Assembly (NCBI GenBank): GCA_900540365.1
Contig: UQFN01000004.1
Span: forward strand, 51,362-115,361
Direction of reading: 5' to 3'
DNA length: 64,000 bases
Source of the DNA: an uncultured Mollicutes bacterium
Lineage (GTDB): Bacteria > Bacillota_I > Bacilli_A > RFN20 > CAG-826
Shown here: positions 15,800 to 41,992 of the stretch, one piece after another
Position numbering within the stretch: the first letter of the stretch is position 1
Layout of the letters: every line of letters begins with the position of its first letter
Translations under genes and position numbers: made by a program
Notes under the pieces: model-generated
Seen by the model: only the letters and a program-made list of their open reading frames with translations
Database searches by the model: none
Told to the model about the DNA's origin: nothing

Positions 15800-17569
15800 A
15801 TGAGTTTTATGTTTAAAACTATTTTTTTAAGTATTGAAGAAATTACTTTCATTGTTTTAGGAATTTCTTTGTTTTTATTTATAACTTTGACAATTGGGAT
15901 TACTTTATTTGATTGGAAAATATCTAAGAAAAATAAAGAAATTATTAATCACCGTTATAATATGTCGCAGAATATTATCGTTGATTTTTTTAACCAAGAA
16001 GTTCGTATTGTTTCTTTAAAAAATTTAAGAAAATCCTTTAAATTATCACTTGTTGAATATTTAAATTTATTTGAACAAAGTGAACAAAACGTAATTAAAA
16101 ACTGGATGCAAGGATTACTTGATGGAAGTATTGATCCTGATATTGATGAAAATATGGTAAAAGTTGCAGGTAGTTTTGTAGATTTTGATAACAAAAAAAG
16201 TATCATAAAAACATTAATTTTATGTACTTATATTGATAAAAGTAAAAAAACGTTATTTTTTGAATCAGAATTATTATTAAATACTCCTGCAGATACAATT
16301 GGTAAAAATAATAAACGTAATGAAAGCAAATATTATTATGAACTTTCTGAAATCAAAAATAAGTATGATAAAGGAGCTTTTAGTAAAGGTTGTTTATTTG
16401 AAATTCGTTTAATTAAAAAAGAAAATATTTTAAGTACTTATAATGTAGATTTTATAAAAGTAATAATTTTAGATGCAATCTACAAGGTTTTAAGTAAAAA
16501 TAATGCATTTTTTTATTTTACAAACAATAAAATGGAATTATGTTTAATAGATGATCGCAGTATTACTAATTTCATGCTTCCTAGATATGTCAATCAAATA
16601 AAAGAAAAAATATCTGAAATTTTAGAAATTAGAGGTTATTTAAATAACTTTGATTTTTATATAGTTTCAAGTTTAATTTCTGATTTAGACAAAAATTATG
16701 ATAATTCGTATTTAGTTTTAGAAAAATATTTTAACTTGGATTTAGATTACAAACGTAAATATTTTATTTATAAACCTGATCATGAAGGTAAACTTGATTT
16801 AGAACAAAGTTATCGTACTGAAATTAATCGTCTTATTCGTAATCAAAATCTTGAAGTCTATTTTAGGCCATTAGTACATATTGCAAATAAACGCGTTATT
16901 AATATGGGATATCTTAGTTTTGTTAAGCCTGTTAATACGATTTTTAAGGATTTAGACGAAATTAAAAAATTTGCCAAAATGTATGACTTAGATAAAGATC
17001 TTTTTTCTTTAATTATTAGAAAAATTATCCCAACTTTTATTAATGAAAAAGAAAATGTTACTCAAAAATTAGCGATTAAAGTTTCTGTTGATCAAATTGG
17101 CTATGCTACTAGAAGCATTCCTCATTTTTCAGGTATTAGTAATGCCTATTTAATTTTATGTTTTGTTAGCAAAGAATTAATTGATTTAGAAGATGATGAA
17201 GATTTAATGCGAGGAATTAAAAATTTAAAAGATAAGGGATATGAAATAGGATTATATTTAACTTCAAATGATTACGTTTTAAAAAGAAGTACTTATTCTA
17301 TTTTTGATTATTTCTTTTTTAATGCTTTATTACCAAATAATGTTAAAGTTAGTTCTCAAGAATTTTTAAAAGCACATCAATATCTTGAAAAATTAATTAA
17401 ATTTGATGCTATTATGGTTGGCATAGAAGGATTAAACATGCAATCAATCGAGCTTTTAGTTAAATCTGGCTTAGAATATTTTAGTGCAGAATGCATAAGC
17501 CCGAAAAGCCCGATGCTGCTGCCGCTTGATAAAAAAATATCTAGAAAATTATTAAATATGCATAAATAA
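15800..17569 (+). CDS. Membrane-anchored protein with degenerate GGDEF-like (approx nt 16370-16640) and degenerate EAL-like (approx nt 16850-17540) modules
   Basis: 589 aa with an N-terminal hydrophobic segment (FIVLGISLFLFITLTIGITLF). The EAL-like blocks are EVYFRPLVHIANKRVINMGYLSF, IMVGIEGLNMQSIELLVKSGLEYFSAECISPKSPM and others, with the catalytic residues replaced. Confidence 0.5.
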   Translation: MSFMFKTIFLSIEEITFIVLGISLFLFITLTIGITLFDWKISKKNKEIINHRYNMSQNIIVDFFNQEVRIVSLKNLRKSFKLSLVEYLNLFEQSEQNVIKNWMQGLLDGSIDPDIDENMVKVAGSFVDFDNKKSIIKTLILCTYIDKSKKTLFFESELLLNTPADTIGKNNKRNESKYYYELSEIKNKYDKGAFSKGCLFEIRLIKKENILSTYNVDFIKVIILDAIYKVLSKNNAFFYFTNNKMELCLIDDRSITNFMLPRYVNQIKEKISEILEIRGYLNNFDFYIVSSLISDLDKNYDNSYLVLEKYFNLDLDYKRKYFIYKPDHEGKLDLEQSYRTEINRLIRNQNLEVYFRPLVHIANKRVINMGYLSFVKPVNTIFKDLDEIKKFAKMYDLDKDLFSLIIRKIIPTFINEKENVTQKLAIKVSVDQIGYATRSIPHFSGISNAYLILCFVSKELIDLEDDEDLMRGIKNLKDKGYEIGLYLTSNDYVLKRSTYSIFDYFFFNALLPNNVKVSSQEFLKAHQYLEKLIKFDAIMVGIEGLNMQSIELLVKSGLEYFSAECISPKSPMLLPLDKKISRKLLNMHK

Positions 17570-31049: not shown

Positions 31050-32575
<1,526 letters not shown>

Positions 32576-32648
32576 ATGGAGAAAGAAAATCGGCTGAAGT
32601 AAGTCGATGTGTAATTAATAAAACCTATATTTTTCTAGATTTTATTCG

Positions 32649-32680
32649 AATTGGCGTTGTAAAATCATCTGTTTTGTTTT
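32649..32680 (+). other. 3' strand of the 16S processing stem in the 16S-23S spacer
   Basis: Complementary to 30971-31007 (see that feature). Confidence 0.75.
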
Positions 32681-32705
32681 GAGGGAATAGAATTCTCTTA
32701 AAAAT

Positions 32706-32754
32706 TGTTCTTTGAAAACTAGATATTTAATAAAACATGTTCTTTCTGTTAAAA
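32706..32754 (+). other. 5' strand of the 23S processing stem, with the boxA-like TGTTCTTTGAAAACTAG
   Basis: TGTTCTTTGAAAACTAGATATTT 32706-32728 pairs with 35774-35796 (two G-U pairs). ATGTTCTTT 32746-32754 pairs with AAAGAACAT 35761-35769. Confidence 0.8.
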
Positions 32755-32838
32755 GCAAAAGAAATCATTGAGTAATCAATAAAATTGCGAATTAACATAT
32801 TGATCGTTAAGACACAAATGTAAACCTAAAATTTTCGA

Positions 32839-35723
<2,885 letters not shown>

Positions 35724-35760
35724 TCAAAGATTTAAGAAATCACAAGAAGTTTTAGGAAAA

Positions 35761-35796
35761 AAAGAACATTTAAAAATATCTAGTTTTCAGGGAACA
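35761..35796 (+). other. 3' strand of the 23S processing stem
   Basis: Complementary to 32706-32754 (see that feature). Confidence 0.8.
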
Positions 35797-35825
35797 TATT
35801 TAAGAGTATAATTTCCTTGACAAGA

Positions 35826-35936
35826 AGTCTGGTGACGATAACGCAGTGGACACACCTCTTCCCATCCCGAACAGAGAAGTTAAGCACTGTAGTGGCGAAG
35901 GTATTGGCAACAAGAGAATAGCAAGTCGCTGGGCTT
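35826..35936 (+). rRNA. rrf: 5S ribosomal RNA
   Basis: TCTGGTGACGATAACGC...CCCATCCCGAACAGAGAAGTTAAGC...GTCGCTGGGC matches 5S. The terminal helix forms between the ends, and a T-run follows. Confidence 0.93.
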
Positions 35937-38105: not shown

Positions 38106-38122
38106 ATTAATTTAAAAAATAT

Positions 38123-38160
38123 AAAGATTCCTTAAACTTATAATAAAGGAATCTTTTTTT
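38123..38160 (+). terminator. Rho-independent terminator after yloV
   Basis: AAAGATTCCTT 38123-38133 pairs with AAGGAATCTTT 38146-38156, followed by T7. Confidence 0.85.
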
Positions 38161-38214
38161 ATTTATTTTTTTTAAATACTTGTTAATATAAAATTAAGTA
38201 ATAAAAAAATAAAT

Positions 38215-39036
38215 ATGAGAAAAGTAGTAATTTTAATTTTATCAAGTTTAACTTTATGTTCATGTAACAATGTAGATCCTTATACTAATTTTATTAATGA
38301 AATAAAGACTAAACATAACAATGAGTATGAAGGATATCGTTACCATTCGTTTTTTAAAGAAAGTGTATGTGTTAATGAAGAAACTAATGAAATATATATT
38401 ATAGAAACTAAAGCAGATGTTGATTATGGAAGTAATTTTTCAGTTGGAACATATTATTGGGATCGCAATGTTCCAATATTACTTGATGAATATATTACGA
38501 TTAGTTATATAAATAACCAAGTTCTTGAATATAAGCAAAATATAAGAAGAGTAGTTAATCAAAATGAGAATTTATGTAAAATTTATAATACAAAGATAAA
38601 CTATCTTGATGAAACATTATCTAAAGAAGAAGTTTATGATTTTGATTTAAATAAAGGTAAGCAATATTTTCATGCTGATTGTTGGACATTCTTCCTTAGT
38701 TCACTTGGAACTATTTATACTGGTTCAATAGATAAAGTTGTTATTAATTATATTGAAGATAATATAGTTTATTTAGATGTTGATTTTAGTTATAAAACAA
38801 TTAATTATCAATATTATTATGATAGAAAATTAGTAGTTGATTTTAAATATGGATTAATTTCAAATGAAATAATGCATTTTTATTTTGATGATGATTTAAA
38901 AATATATCAAATTGATAAAGTAGATAATTCTACTTATTATATCTTTGATAAGAAGACTAATAAGATTTCTGCAACATATTTAGTTAGTAGTAAGATTAAA
39001 CTTGTTAGTAGAAGTGAATTTGAGGTAACTTTATGA
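38215..39036 (+). CDS. Putative lipoprotein, type A, copy 1 (unrecognised family)
   Basis: 273 aa with a signal peptide and lipobox (MRKVVILILSSLTLCSC). It is a paralogue of 40155-40970. Its stop overlaps the next start (ATGA). Confidence 0.7.
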   Translation: MRKVVILILSSLTLCSCNNVDPYTNFINEIKTKHNNEYEGYRYHSFFKESVCVNEETNEIYIIETKADVDYGSNFSVGTYYWDRNVPILLDEYITISYINNQVLEYKQNIRRVVNQNENLCKIYNTKINYLDETLSKEEVYDFDLNKGKQYFHADCWTFFLSSLGTIYTGSIDKVVINYIEDNIVYLDVDFSYKTINYQYYYDRKLVVDFKYGLISNEIMHFYFDDDLKIYQIDKVDNSTYYIFDKKTNKISATYLVSSKIKLVSRSEFEVTL

Positions 39037-39993
39037 GAAAAGTGGGCATTTTATTTAGTTTAGTTACTTTATTATCTTTAACTTCTTGTAATGAAGACAC
39101 TATTTTAAATAATATTATTAATTTAAAAAATCGTCTTGATTATTTAAATGGACATTATGATACAGGTAGATATAGTTATTATCCTTATTATCAAAGTTAT
39201 GATTTATCTTCATTTTTAAAAACAAGTGATAATTATGAATTGTTAAATATAAAAGGTGATTTTGAACTTGAAATGGATTATAGCAAAGTTAAAAATCGAA
39301 ATGGTTATATTGAATTTAACTTAATTAATGGAGAAATAGAATCTAATTTATATTCTAGTTTATATATTAAAATAGTTTTTAAATTTGATACTTATATTGA
39401 TATTTCTTATATTGATAAGCTAAATCCTTTAAATAATATGCATGGAACGTATTTTTTAGAAGGTAAACCTAATATAACTTTTGATTTTAGTTCCATATTT
39501 AATAGATTTAGATAATTTAATTAATGAAGCTTACTTAAATTTAAAAGATGAAGCAATTATTGATACTAAACTAGCTAATTATGAAGAAATAAGTGGGTAT
39601 ACACCTTTAAATGAAGTTAATATTAGTCTTGATACTTTTTTAAGTATTTATAGAGATGTTAAAGAAAATGATAATTTATTAAATAAAGGTAAAATTTATG
39701 AATATGTTTCTTATTTTGATTTAATTCCTTCTGTTCCTTTTTCTCAAAATAAATATTATTTTAAAAATGGTTGGGTTAAAGAACTTGCTAGAAGAAGTTA
39801 TTATGAAGATAATTTAGTTAATTTTAACTTTAATGAATCTTTAAAAGCTAATCAAGAAACATTTTATAATTTAGTTCTTCCTTCTTCAAATGATCGAATT
39901 TTAATTAATAATAACTTAGACTATTTTACTAATATAAATTTAGGTTATAAATCAAATTTAAGAGATTTTGTCGAAATGTTAAAAAATCGATAA
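39033..39993 (+). pseudogene. Putative lipoprotein, type B, copy 1, split by a +1 frameshift near 39486-39498
   Basis: ORFs 39033-39515 and 39481-39993 together are colinear with the 326-aa type B copy 2. The shared N-terminus is LTSCNED.../LTSCNSD..., the shared core is LLNKGKIYEYVSYFD/LLNKGSITEYVSYFD, and the shared C-terminus is YKSNLRD. Confidence 0.7.
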
Positions 39994-40041
39994 TAATCGT
40001 TTGTTTATTTACAAAATTAATTTCAAATTTATTACATTTTA

Positions 40042-40069
40042 TTTACAAAAAAATTTCGTATGTTAGTAT
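40042..40069 (+). promoter_or_regulatory. Candidate promoter of the second lipoprotein pair (TTTACA-16-TAGTAT)
   Basis: The -35 is at 40042-40047 and the -10 at 40064-40069. The -35 lies in the second copy of a direct repeat TTTATTTACAAAA (40004-40016 and 40038-40050). Confidence 0.35.
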
Positions 40070-40154
40070 GAAAGTAGATGAATAACTTATAAATTGATAT
40101 TACTTTAAAAATTAGTTTTTATCTTTTAGTTATTTTTTCTAATTAGGGGGAATT

Positions 40155-40970
40155 ATGAAAAAATTTGTTTTACTTTTTATCCCATTACTAGCTTTAACTT
40201 CTTGTGGAAATAATCCAACTGATGAATTTATAACAGCTATAAATGATCAACATGAAAAAGGCAAATTTTTTCAAAATTATGATTATTATCGAAAGAGTTC
40301 ATTTATTAACGAAGAAGATAATAAAATATATATAACCACTTATAATGCAAAAATTTTTAAAGAAGATGGAATTTGGGATTACGACTTAAAACATCTTAAA
40401 GGAGATTTGATGGATGTTGAAGTAAATAGGTTTTATTTTGAAAAAAATGAACTTGTTTATAAAGAAAATATAGTTTATAAATTTAAAGATAAAACAAATT
40501 ATTTTAATTTAACAAAAATTGATAATAATGGTGATATAGTCTCTCAAGAAGAATCTAGTTTTAAAGCTAATCCTCCAAGATATATTTATACTAGTATTGA
40601 TACTTTTTTCTTTTCAGTTCCTAATAATGTGATTTCTGGATTGGAATTATTTTTAATATATAACAGCATTGATATAAACTATTTTGAACCTAATAATATT
40701 GTTGTTAATTTTGATAACAAAGATGTTTATACAAATAAGGATATCTTAGATCAAAATAACAATTTAATATCAACTTTCTATTATAAAAAAAGTAGTGATG
40801 GTATAAGTAAATTTTATTTTGATGATGAATTAAGAATGACAAAGATTATTTCTTTAGCTAATAACACTTATATTTTTAAAGATGATGTAACAAATATTTA
40901 TAATCATCAATTTAATGGCACAGTATATGAAGAATTAAATTCAATTGATTCTTTTGAGGTAGTTATATGA
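40155..40970 (+). CDS. Putative lipoprotein, type A, copy 2
   Basis: 271 aa with the lipobox LALTSCGNN and the RBS AGGGGG. It is colinear with copy 1 (for example NEEDNKIYITTYNAKI against NEETNEIYIIETKADV, and the ends SFEVVI against EFEVTL). Confidence 0.75.
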   Translation: MKKFVLLFIPLLALTSCGNNPTDEFITAINDQHEKGKFFQNYDYYRKSSFINEEDNKIYITTYNAKIFKEDGIWDYDLKHLKGDLMDVEVNRFYFEKNELVYKENIVYKFKDKTNYFNLTKIDNNGDIVSQEESSFKANPPRYIYTSIDTFFFSVPNNVISGLELFLIYNSIDINYFEPNNIVVNFDNKDVYTNKDILDQNNNLISTFYYKKSSDGISKFYFDDELRMTKIISLANNTYIFKDDVTNIYNHQFNGTVYEELNSIDSFEVVI

Positions 40971-41947
40971 AAAAGACTTTTATTTTTTTAAGTTTATTTC
41001 CGTTATTAGTTTTAACTTCATGTAATAGTGATCCTCTTTTAGAAAATATTATTAATTTTAAGAACCGAGTTAATAATTTAAAAGAACTTTATTATGTAAA
41101 TGGCGATAATTACTATTTTGGGAAATATTATTTAAATTCTTATTATCAAAATAATGATAATTATGAAATATTATCAATTAATGGAGATATTGTTTATCAA
41201 TATTATGCTTTTATAACAAGAGATCAAATTGAAGTTGAAAATGTTTATGGCGATATTACTTTTAATTTAATAAGTGGAAATTTAAATAGTAATCAAAAAA
41301 CAAGTTTATTAGTCAACCTAAATTTTAAAAATAGGATTTATTATGATATTAGTTATGTTGATGCATCTGATAGTTCGCAAAATTATACTGCTAAATATTA
41401 TATTAATAAAAATATCAATTTAATTTATGACTTAAATAAAAATTTGATTAATCTTGATGATTTTGTTAATTATTATTATCAAAATATAGTTAATAACAAA
41501 AACACTTCAATCGAAGTAGCAACTTCTAAAAGTATGGATATAAATAGTTATCTTTTTTCATATTCTGATATATCTAATAATTATTCAAATAATACTTATT
41601 TAAGAATAAATCGAGATATTTTAAATAGTGATAAATTACTTAATAAAGGTAGTATTACTGAATATGTTTCTTATTTTGATATATACCCATATGTTGATGG
41701 AAATAGTTTGCCAATGACGTTTTATAATGGTCAACTTGAAAAAATTAGTCGTATAGCTAATTATAATAATGAAGATAATTCTGAGATCTTTATTTTTAAT
41801 GAAGAATTTAGTGCTAATAGATATGAAGAATATATTTATGAAGAACCTAATAAGATAGATTATGAATTAATAGAAAATACAAATTTAAGTAATATTACTT
41901 TAAGTTATAAGTCAAATTTAAGAGATATATTAAATCTTTTAGCTTAA
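40967..41947 (+). CDS. Putative lipoprotein, type B, copy 2 (intact)
   Basis: 326 aa with the lipobox LVLTSCNSD. Its start overlaps the type A stop (ATGA). Confidence 0.75.
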   Translation: MKKTFIFLSLFPLLVLTSCNSDPLLENIINFKNRVNNLKELYYVNGDNYYFGKYYLNSYYQNNDNYEILSINGDIVYQYYAFITRDQIEVENVYGDITFNLISGNLNSNQKTSLLVNLNFKNRIYYDISYVDASDSSQNYTAKYYINKNINLIYDLNKNLINLDDFVNYYYQNIVNNKNTSIEVATSKSMDINSYLFSYSDISNNYSNNTYLRINRDILNSDKLLNKGSITEYVSYFDIYPYVDGNSLPMTFYNGQLEKISRIANYNNEDNSEIFIFNEEFSANRYEEYIYEEPNKIDYELIENTNLSNITLSYKSNLRDILNLLA

Positions 41948-41970
41948 TTTTATTAATAACTATAATGAAT

Positions 41971-41992
41971 AATACAAAAAGTTGTATTTTTT
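41971..41992 (+). terminator. Rho-independent terminator after the lipoprotein cluster
   Basis: AATACAA pairs with TTGTATT, followed by a T-run. Confidence 0.65.

Follow-up and report, generated by a model that had tools for sequence, protein, structure and literature searches.

Tandem arrays of lipoprotein genes that vary between strains and are shaped by recombination are already known. In the variable lipoprotein families of mycoplasmas, a conserved 5' signal-peptide region is joined to divergent mature parts. The DUF576 tandem lipoproteins of Staphylococcus aureus, long treated as antigens, have turned out to be extracellular immunity proteins, TilA, which act against the secreted lipase toxin TslA (PMC10730906). 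They vary in copy number, with recombination over a conserved stretch (PMC10730906). The locus described here lies between fakA and plsX in 64,000 nucleotides of DNA (the window; contig UQFN01000004.1, positions 51,362 to 115,361 of the forward strand, assembly GCA_900540365.1) from an uncultured Mollicutes bacterium. It holds two tandem pairs of predicted lipoprotein genes, each a gene A followed by a gene B. Comparison with other assemblies indicates, with high confidence, that these open reading frames (ORFs) represent, in reduced layout, an array of the three-gene module C-A-B that is restricted to one species and varies between its strains. New here are three protein families, an obligate coupled pair of unrelated lipoproteins and a C-A-B module with four types at a housekeeping locus. 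The genes of the window are:

38215-39036, + strand: A1 (A-alpha), ORF for a 273-aa predicted lipoprotein precursor, lipobox Cys17
39033-39993, + strand: B1 (B-alpha), pseudogene in two ORFs, 39033-39515 (160 aa) and 39481-39993 (170 aa)
40155-40970, + strand: A2 (A-beta), ORF for a 271-aa predicted lipoprotein precursor, lipobox Cys17
40967-41947, + strand: B2 (B-beta), ORF for a 326-aa predicted lipoprotein precursor, lipobox Cys19

The window and 24 related contigs from other samples, 25 sequences in all, were typed uniformly. Flanking genes on the contigs that bear homologues are 93-100% identical to those of the window at the nucleotide (nt) level, and these contigs are therefore assigned to the same species. 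The fakA-plsX gap of this species holds variable numbers of the module C-A-B, composed of C (713-714 aa), A (~272 aa) and B (~320 aa). The third member, gene C, had been missed by the original prediction, which was made from the window sequence. All-against-all comparison resolved four types, namely alpha (A1 and B1 of the window), beta (A2 and B2), gamma and delta, with the following identities:

A: 25-37% between types, 92-100% within a type
B: 37-66% between types, 92-100% within a type
C: 44-59% between types, 89-100% within a type

Strains carry one to three A-B pairs and between none and two C genes, in at least seven layouts. Read from fakA to plsX, these are:

H1 (window, L039): A-alpha, B-alpha (frameshift), A-beta, B-beta
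H2 (L044, L045, L047; L043 with C split): B-alpha fragment, C-beta, A-beta, B-beta
H3 (L005, L001-L003): C-alpha, A-alpha, B-alpha, A-gamma, B-gamma
H4 (L040/41, L053/54): A-alpha, B-alpha, C-delta, A-delta, B-delta, A-gamma, B-gamma
H5 (L042): A-alpha, B-alpha, C-beta, A-beta, B-beta, C-delta', A-gamma, B-gamma
H6 (L055): C-alpha, A-alpha, B-alpha, C-beta, A-beta, B-beta
H7 (L038): ...C-delta, A-delta, B-delta, plsX

Layouts H1 to H4 (four of the seven) were each recovered from more than one sample. Layout H6 corresponds to the window arrangement with both C genes in place; the window itself holds alpha and beta, with both C genes lost and B-alpha frameshifted. Since A-alpha also has no recognisable Shine-Dalgarno (SD) sequence upstream in the window layout, only the beta pair looks fully functional. 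Both of its genes are intact and 95-98% identical to the copies in other strains. Every C gene or C fragment found (23 of 23) is followed within 3-9 nt by an A-B pair. A-B pairs often stand without C (alpha pairs in three layouts, the beta pair in the window and gamma pairs in two layouts), and no genome carries any type twice. C-alpha is found only before alpha pairs and C-beta only before beta pairs, and C-delta is found before delta pairs.

A second case of module decay was observed in L043 (4854-6992; NCBI metagenome-assembled genome (MAG) GCA_034116585.1), where C-beta is split into ORFs of 487 aa and 222 aa. In arrays starting with C (L044 2350-2570; L005 2730-3028), a B-alpha piece of ~220-300 bp lies between fakA and C, of which single-module strains keep ~220 bp. 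Made up of an internal piece and the 3' end of the gene, it is the relic of a deleted earlier pair.

Copies of gene C, which is absent from the window, include:

L005 3042-5186: C
L042 5956-8100 and 10001-12142: C, two copies
L040 4611-6752: C

Each has its own strong SD in front of it. Between types, C is 93-97% identical in its first 66 residues. It varies along its entire length, most of all in a central hydrophobic segment (~residues 305-340), a hypervariable region with 15-30% identity between types. C also has an N-terminal hydrophobic segment, two weak regions resembling the pre-peptidase C-terminal domain (PPC) and a C-terminal His/Cys motif, HxHDY...YCEC...EGH...CxxCGG. Neither a lipase nor an LXG domain was found in C, nor small helical partner genes nearby, and C matched only 6 clusters in a search of 5.8 billion proteins.

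The original prediction had placed four ORFs at these coordinates, each with a signal peptide and lipobox, and both points were borne out. The region has a G+C content of 20.4%, equivalent to ~0.10 stops per random codon. As its longest open frame of 329 codons far exceeds the maximum of 112 found in 1000 shuffles, the ORFs are regarded as real genes. The cassette genes have a G+C content of 19-22%, the flanking genes 23-30%. In each of the four, M-[KR]-K is followed by a hydrophobic stretch and then by LCSC, LTSC, LTSC and LTSC, respectively, which places the lipobox cysteine, as read off the sequence, at residue 17 of A and residue 19 of B. Lipoboxes were called from N-terminal basic residues, a hydrophobic core and [LVI][ASTVIC][GAS]C within the first ~35 residues, and all four window ORFs have one, as does, in the 24 other loci, each copy of A or B whose N-terminus is complete. 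The Pfam model LPAM_1 gave no more than sub-threshold matches to the window proteins (E 0.19-0.38).

Paralogy of the two pairs was likewise upheld. A1 and A2 share 29% identity (E 2e-16), and the two halves of B1 are 39-40% identical to B2 (E 1e-26 and 3e-21). The pairs are thus tandem duplicates in the sense of old paralogous modules, but not of a recent duplication as the earlier wording could suggest. A further proposal, that A and B are themselves distant paralogues, was rejected. An hhalign probability of 92% for A against B was obtained with signal peptides included and fell to 0.1% once the sequences were cut after the lipobox cysteine; the initial value came from the alignment of signal peptides.

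The break in B1 is caused by one extra C in the CC at 39493-39494. This extra C recurs in L039, a contig of another sample; L005 and L001 lack it, and their B1 is an uninterrupted ORF of 318 aa. A1 shares 92-95% identity with its alpha counterparts in L005, L040 and L042. Reading of TGA as a sense codon was considered and rejected: TGA is a genuine stop here, because read-through adds only 4-8 codons and the signal peptide of B starts at the overlap. In some genomes of Candidatus Onthovivens, CGG is reported to have been reassigned from Arg to Trp (PMC13092985). This reassignment is irrelevant to A and B, as their genes contain no CGG codon. Across the window, in-frame CGG is nearly absent, with 3 codons (~14058, 19152 and 21110) against 336 AGA.

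The following translation and transcription signals were identified:

38123-38163, + strand: terminator-like hairpin with U7 after fakA (inverted repeat I8; 11-bp stem, -10.8 kcal/mol, z -2.98)
39022-39036, + strand: coupling site of the alpha pair, GAGGT in the FEV codons of A, then ATGA (B start and A stop)
40956-40970, + strand: coupling site of the beta pair, GAGGT, then ATGA
41970-41992, + strand: weak hairpin with U6 after B2 (-5.6 kcal/mol, z -2.1), preceding the SD of plsX

The overlap of the A stop and B start in ATGA, earlier described for both pairs, was confirmed in the sequence. At all 38 A-B junctions in the 25 sequences the 4-nt overlap is kept and the types are matched. A conserved C-terminal FEV had also been pointed out in A. 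It is indeed conserved, but part of the motif had been overlooked as the SD of B. The sequence TTTGAGGTA, kept in all four types (window 39022-39030 and 40956-40964), encodes the FEV and at the same time holds GAGGT, 8-9 nt before the ATG of B. Since TTTGAGGTA supplies the SD of the overlapping B gene, the motif is at least partly a translation signal. A-beta is preceded by a strong SD, AGGGGGA (40144-40150), and the beta coupling site is intact. The terminator hairpin of fakA separates that gene from the array. In such AT-rich DNA a promoter scan carried no information, with 42 sites against an expectation of 45.6. The lengths of the poly-A and poly-T tracts that precede A-alpha and A-beta (38114-38119, 38166-38173, 40052-40058 and 40135-40140) vary by 1 nt between strains. 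Such differences are expected in AT-rich spacers; they may be normal variation of a spacer or, as a weak hint, point to a tuning of expression.

Two segments of the window bear on how the array has been rearranged:

39994-40154, + strand: inter-pair spacer (blastn against L042, L040 and L005; alignment with L005, L001 and L006)
40214-41776, + strand: type-specific block, comprising mature A-beta and ~80% of B-beta (sliding identity)

The type-specific block is 47-71% identical at the nt level to the gamma block of L005/L001, its flanks 93-100%. It starts just past the A2 lipobox codons and stops ~55 codons before the end of B2. This block is the beta-versus-gamma difference. Its interpretation as an allelic replacement of A2-B2 was dropped, as L040, L042 and L055 show separate paralogous module types, each of which an array may hold or lack. 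The signal peptide of A-beta in the window is identical to that of A-gamma in L005 and differs from that of A-beta in L042, a copy that follows C; the window gene therefore has a recombinant 5' end. A-gamma of L042 carries the delta signal peptide. At the other end of the pair, B proteins terminate in ...YKSNLRDILNLLA beside plsX and in ...YKSNLRDFVEMLKD inside arrays, and the last ~55 aa of B-beta are common to the gamma and delta copies adjoining plsX. The junctions of a deletion in L040 fall exactly at the YKSNLRD codons.

The first ~80 bp of the inter-pair spacer match the B-C spacer of full modules, and window positions 39900-40073 (the 3' end of B1 plus 80 bp) recur before every C gene. 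The following ~80 bp (40074-40154), which include the SD AGGGGGA, stand where other strains have C. The segment with no counterpart before C genes extends into the signal-peptide codons of A2, to ~40184, and so measures ~110 bp; it is also present in L005. C-less pairs have their own upstream cassette with a strong SD, fused at the signal peptide to a beta or gamma mature part. Taken together, the junctions provide good support for a reshuffling of the array by homologous recombination across shared stretches, which would explain both the changes in copy number and the chimeras. The shared stretches are the signal-peptide and lipobox codons of A, the 3' end of B (YKSNLRD codons) with the spacer, and the first 66 codons of C. 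A search for internal tandem repeats with TRF found only four short AT-rich arrays (scores ≤44), and neither meaningful inverted or invertible repeats nor recombinase genes were found at the locus.

Searches for relatives were in agreement with the earlier statement that A and B carry no characterised domain: profile searches of Pfam, NCBIfam, PADLOC, PHROGs and the PDB gave nothing usable. No A or B matched DUF576 or the NCBIfam tandem-lipoprotein model at E ≤ 1, no hidden Markov model (HMM) match to LolA, LppX or substrate-binding families was obtained for A or B, and their profiles found no PDB sequence. A word-indexed search of 5.8 billion proteins returned 3 clusters for A2 and 18 for B2, and an exhaustive HMMER search of 1.84 billion representatives with the B profile recovered only B2, B1 and one 39-aa fragment. 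Only the locus itself was found with the B profile in GTDB species genomes and with the A and C profiles in JGI metagenomes. The A profile against IMG/VR was negative, as were tblastn searches with A2 and C against plasmids and with B2 against phages. A2 is 97% identical to a hypothetical protein from a MAG of Candidatus Onthovivens sp., a low-G+C genus of Bacilli known from metagenomes only. It is well supported by these searches that the A, B and C families are restricted to one Candidatus Onthovivens species, with no relatives outside it.

Structure prediction with AlphaFold2 gave a predicted local distance difference test score (pLDDT) of 54 for A2 from a shallow alignment, with residues 38-137 at 70-92; the score for B2 was 35 and the model unusable. 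The predicted fold of A2 has an N-terminal helix followed by long antiparallel strands, ~11 in all. The top Foldseek matches of A2 were open beta-sheet or barrel proteins, including the lipid binders ApoB, MTP, lipovitellin and VtrC. Query-normalised TM-scores were ≤0.35 in the PDB and ≤0.24 in BFVD, and none reached 0.5 when target-normalised. The matches to this predicted model are not significant and provide no evidence of homology.

The gene order at the locus is rRNA operon, asp23, fakA, cassette and plsX-rnc-ftsY-ffh. In 31 plsX loci of related species, no relative of A or B was found (0/31). Three Helicobacter genomes and L037, the most distant, fall outside the identity groups, which are:

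PlsX identity 65-72% (n=12): fakA directly followed by plsX in 7; other genes in L008 and L011; 3 contigs without a fakA ORF upstream
PlsX identity 59-61% (n=7, L019-L025): ORF of ~360-400 aa between fakA and plsX in 4, reported as IS605 TnpB
PlsX identity 39-48% (n=8): fakA-recG-plsX as in Bacillus in 4; recG without fakA on the contig in 2

Two of the ORFs in the 59-61% group were scanned (L020 and L023) and are IS605 OrfB/TnpB (Cas12f-like). Within the same group, the L019 contig lacks fakA but carries a similar TnpB-like ORF just upstream of plsX, in L024 the place before plsX is taken by an unrelated ORF of 193 aa that runs on the opposite strand, and the contig of L022 is too short. In L030 and L031, of the most distant group listed, fakA lies directly before plsX. 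The earlier claim that the cassette is inserted between fakA and plsX therefore holds, the closest species having fakA next to plsX and distant ones recG there. Because the related loci encode no relative of A or B, the cassette is regarded as a lineage-specific insertion. The fakA-plsX gap appears, from its contents across these species, to be a recurrent insertion site that takes up foreign DNA.

A complete rRNA operon (16S, 23S, 5S) lies at 31050-35934, immediately before asp23-fakA. The contigs of related MAGs in many cases stop 2-3 kb upstream of plsX, and a break of the assemblies at the rRNA operon is the probable cause. Elsewhere in the window, an ORF of 589 aa (15800-17569) lies in a patch of low G+C content (24%) and overlaps, at its end, with the beginning of proS. 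Its product has an N-terminal membrane segment and a match to the EAL domain (E 5e-5) that is below the Pfam cut-off, with a degenerate EAL signature.

Ratios of non-synonymous to synonymous substitution (dN/dS), from comparisons with dS of 0.03-0.13 throughout, were:

A, within type: 0.19-0.89
B, within type: 0.14-0.55
fakA, plsX, rnc, ftsY: 0.00-0.09

The beta pair gave 0.29-0.35 against the copies of other strains. The modules date back as far as the strains themselves. Selection still acts on their proteins; it is purifying but relaxed, with a constraint much looser than in the flanking genes or partly diversifying. One of two hypotheses in the original prediction, a heteromeric surface lipoprotein pair under diversifying selection, is supported in part: by the coupled, type-matched junctions, the four diverged types and the raised dN/dS. 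Against it, dN/dS stays below 1, adjacency alone could explain the matching of A and B types, and the unit is actually C-A-B, of which the window holds a reduced form.

The interpretation favoured here follows the logic of effectors and immunity proteins: A and B may be a co-translated pair of surface lipoproteins that serves as the type-specific partner or neutraliser of C. It is advanced tentatively, its probability being put at somewhat less than even. A and B would be co-produced through translational coupling and, to judge from their N-termini, tethered by a lipid anchor to the outside of the membrane, and each pair would recognise its own type of C protein. C would be an exported effector acting on the envelope or membrane, and A-B its cognate neutraliser at the surface; C-less pairs, such as those in the window, would protect against the C proteins of other strains. 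This logic is favoured because C never occurs without A-B whereas A-B often occurs without C, because each genome holds non-redundant types, because C-less pairs have acquired their own expression cassette and because the array behaves like the DUF576 tandem lipoproteins of S. aureus.

As in the DUF576 family (Lpl/Csa/TilA), lipoproteins of ~260-270 aa are encoded in strain-variable tandem arrays beside a large protein, which is secreted in S. aureus. Recombination over conserved stretches is also shared, as seen here in the 1-3 pairs, the layouts numbering at least seven and the junctions at the signal-peptide codons and the 3' end of B. Unlike DUF576, to which there is no sequence match, the locus encodes two unrelated families that form an obligate coupled pair. 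C differs from TslA in having no lipase, LXG or type VII secretion system (T7SS) features, and the order is C followed by A-B, whereas S. aureus has tilA before tslA. Similarities extend to the toxin-immunity arrays of contact-dependent inhibition (CDI), Rhs and LXG/T7SS systems (EsaD, TelC-TipC), where a large variable protein is always followed by its cognate genes, with orphan downstream genes, non-redundant types per genome and a conserved N-terminus of the large protein. In contrast to those arrays, C has no recognised toxin or trafficking domain, and its variation is not placed in a C-terminal toxin tip.

Several observations weigh against this interpretation. An immunity system that devotes two distinct large lipoproteins to each effector would be unusual, and the finding that C never occurs without A-B also fits a C protein that is a passenger anchored by A-B. 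A Pfam PPC match at E 0.004 was the only domain signal in C; domains of toxins, enzymes or secretion systems were not found, and searches of NCBIfam, PADLOC, PHROGs and, with sequence and profile, the PDB gave nothing usable. The N-terminus of C has neither a basic n-region nor a clear cleavage site, so that C is no more than a putative exported protein. No A-B or A-B-C interface could be modelled (pLDDT 54 for A2 and 35 for B2), the A-B interface owing to the failure of the model of B. Of the seven layouts, three each come from a single assembly, and chimeras can arise in the assembly of metagenomes. L042 combines a C-delta variant with a gamma pair and has no delta pair, which is awkward unless gamma neutralises the variant. 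A match of the central segment of this C-delta' to the gamma type is made doubtful by L053, which has the same C variant before a delta pair.

The main alternative is that A, B and, where present, C form a variable surface antigen or receptor complex without any effector, its types being kept by frequency-dependent selection from phages or host immunoglobulin A (IgA). The lipobox signals on all A and B copies, a signal-peptide region at the 5' end that is conserved next to divergent mature parts (25-37% identity among the A types), the raised dN/dS of A (up to 0.89) and the confinement of these low-G+C genes to one species would all be in keeping with it. The locus resembles the Vlp, Vsp, Vsa and Vpma loci of mycoplasmas in its clustered lipoprotein genes, conserved 5' region and strain-variable content, and in belonging to a wall-less or reduced lineage related to Bacilli. 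It differs from them in having no internal tandem repeats, site-specific recombinase, inverted repeats or single-expression-site logic, and in consisting of modules of two or three different genes and not of one family. No switching device was found: there are no internal coding repeats or invertible repeats, and the upstream tracts vary by 1 nt only; up to three types reside together in one genome, which is no help to evasion, and the types are stable (92-99% identical within a type). On balance this alternative is rather unlikely. It is improbable that the cassette of this strain is a decaying remnant without activity, left after the loss of both C genes and drifting towards loss. The absence of both C genes, the frameshift in B-alpha, the lack of an SD before A-alpha, the split C gene of L043 and the ~220-bp B-alpha fragment left in single-module strains would be expected of such decay. 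A-beta and B-beta, however, are intact, have a strong SD and a coupling site, are 95-98% identical elsewhere and show dN/dS of 0.29-0.35; at 20% G+C, chance could not maintain open frames as long as 271-326 codons, and the same layout occurs in several samples.

The second hypothesis of the original prediction, a lipid or fatty-acid scavenging module tied to fakA and plsX, rests on the neighbouring genes only and is very improbable in the light of the comparative data. In its favour are the position between these genes, the absence of fabD, fabG and acpP after plsX in the window, where rnc comes next, and the open beta-sheet lipid binders among the top Foldseek matches of the low-confidence A2 model. 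The predicted topology of A2, a helix and a long antiparallel beta-meander behind a lipoprotein anchor, is like that of LolA, LppX and LprG, but without any HMM match or conservation across species, and the TM-scores of ≤0.35 on a model of pLDDT 54 are not significant. fakA has its own terminator and abuts plsX in seven close relatives, others having a TnpB element or recG in between. Strains of the one species differ in gene content, and one of the copies has become a pseudogene. Neither A nor B resembles LolA, LppX or substrate-binding families, the A and B families are absent outside this species, and the 31 plsX loci of related species show no conserved linkage to lipid genes.

Variation in number and type between strains, as at this locus, is typical of genes in conflict with competitors, phages or the host. 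The locus lies in an uncultured gut lineage with reduced genomes, of which almost nothing functional is known, and it shows how arrays are built and trimmed by recombination over short conserved stretches. A more specific form of the effector-immunity interpretation is that C-A-B is a previously undescribed interbacterial module of Mollicutes-like gut Bacilli, in which a polymorphic, membrane-inserting C with its specificity in the central segment acts with no dedicated secretion system and is neutralised, at the surface of the cell, by an obligate A-B heterodimer. This form is doubtful; under it, strains would collect orphan A-B pairs as a defence. Even if the effector-immunity interpretation is wrong, the four discrete types are a ready marker for typing strains of this species in metagenomes. 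If it is true, the locus would represent a new class of toxin together with a new, two-lipoprotein design of immunity, and the re-reading of tandem lipoproteins as immunity proteins would extend beyond the staphylococci.

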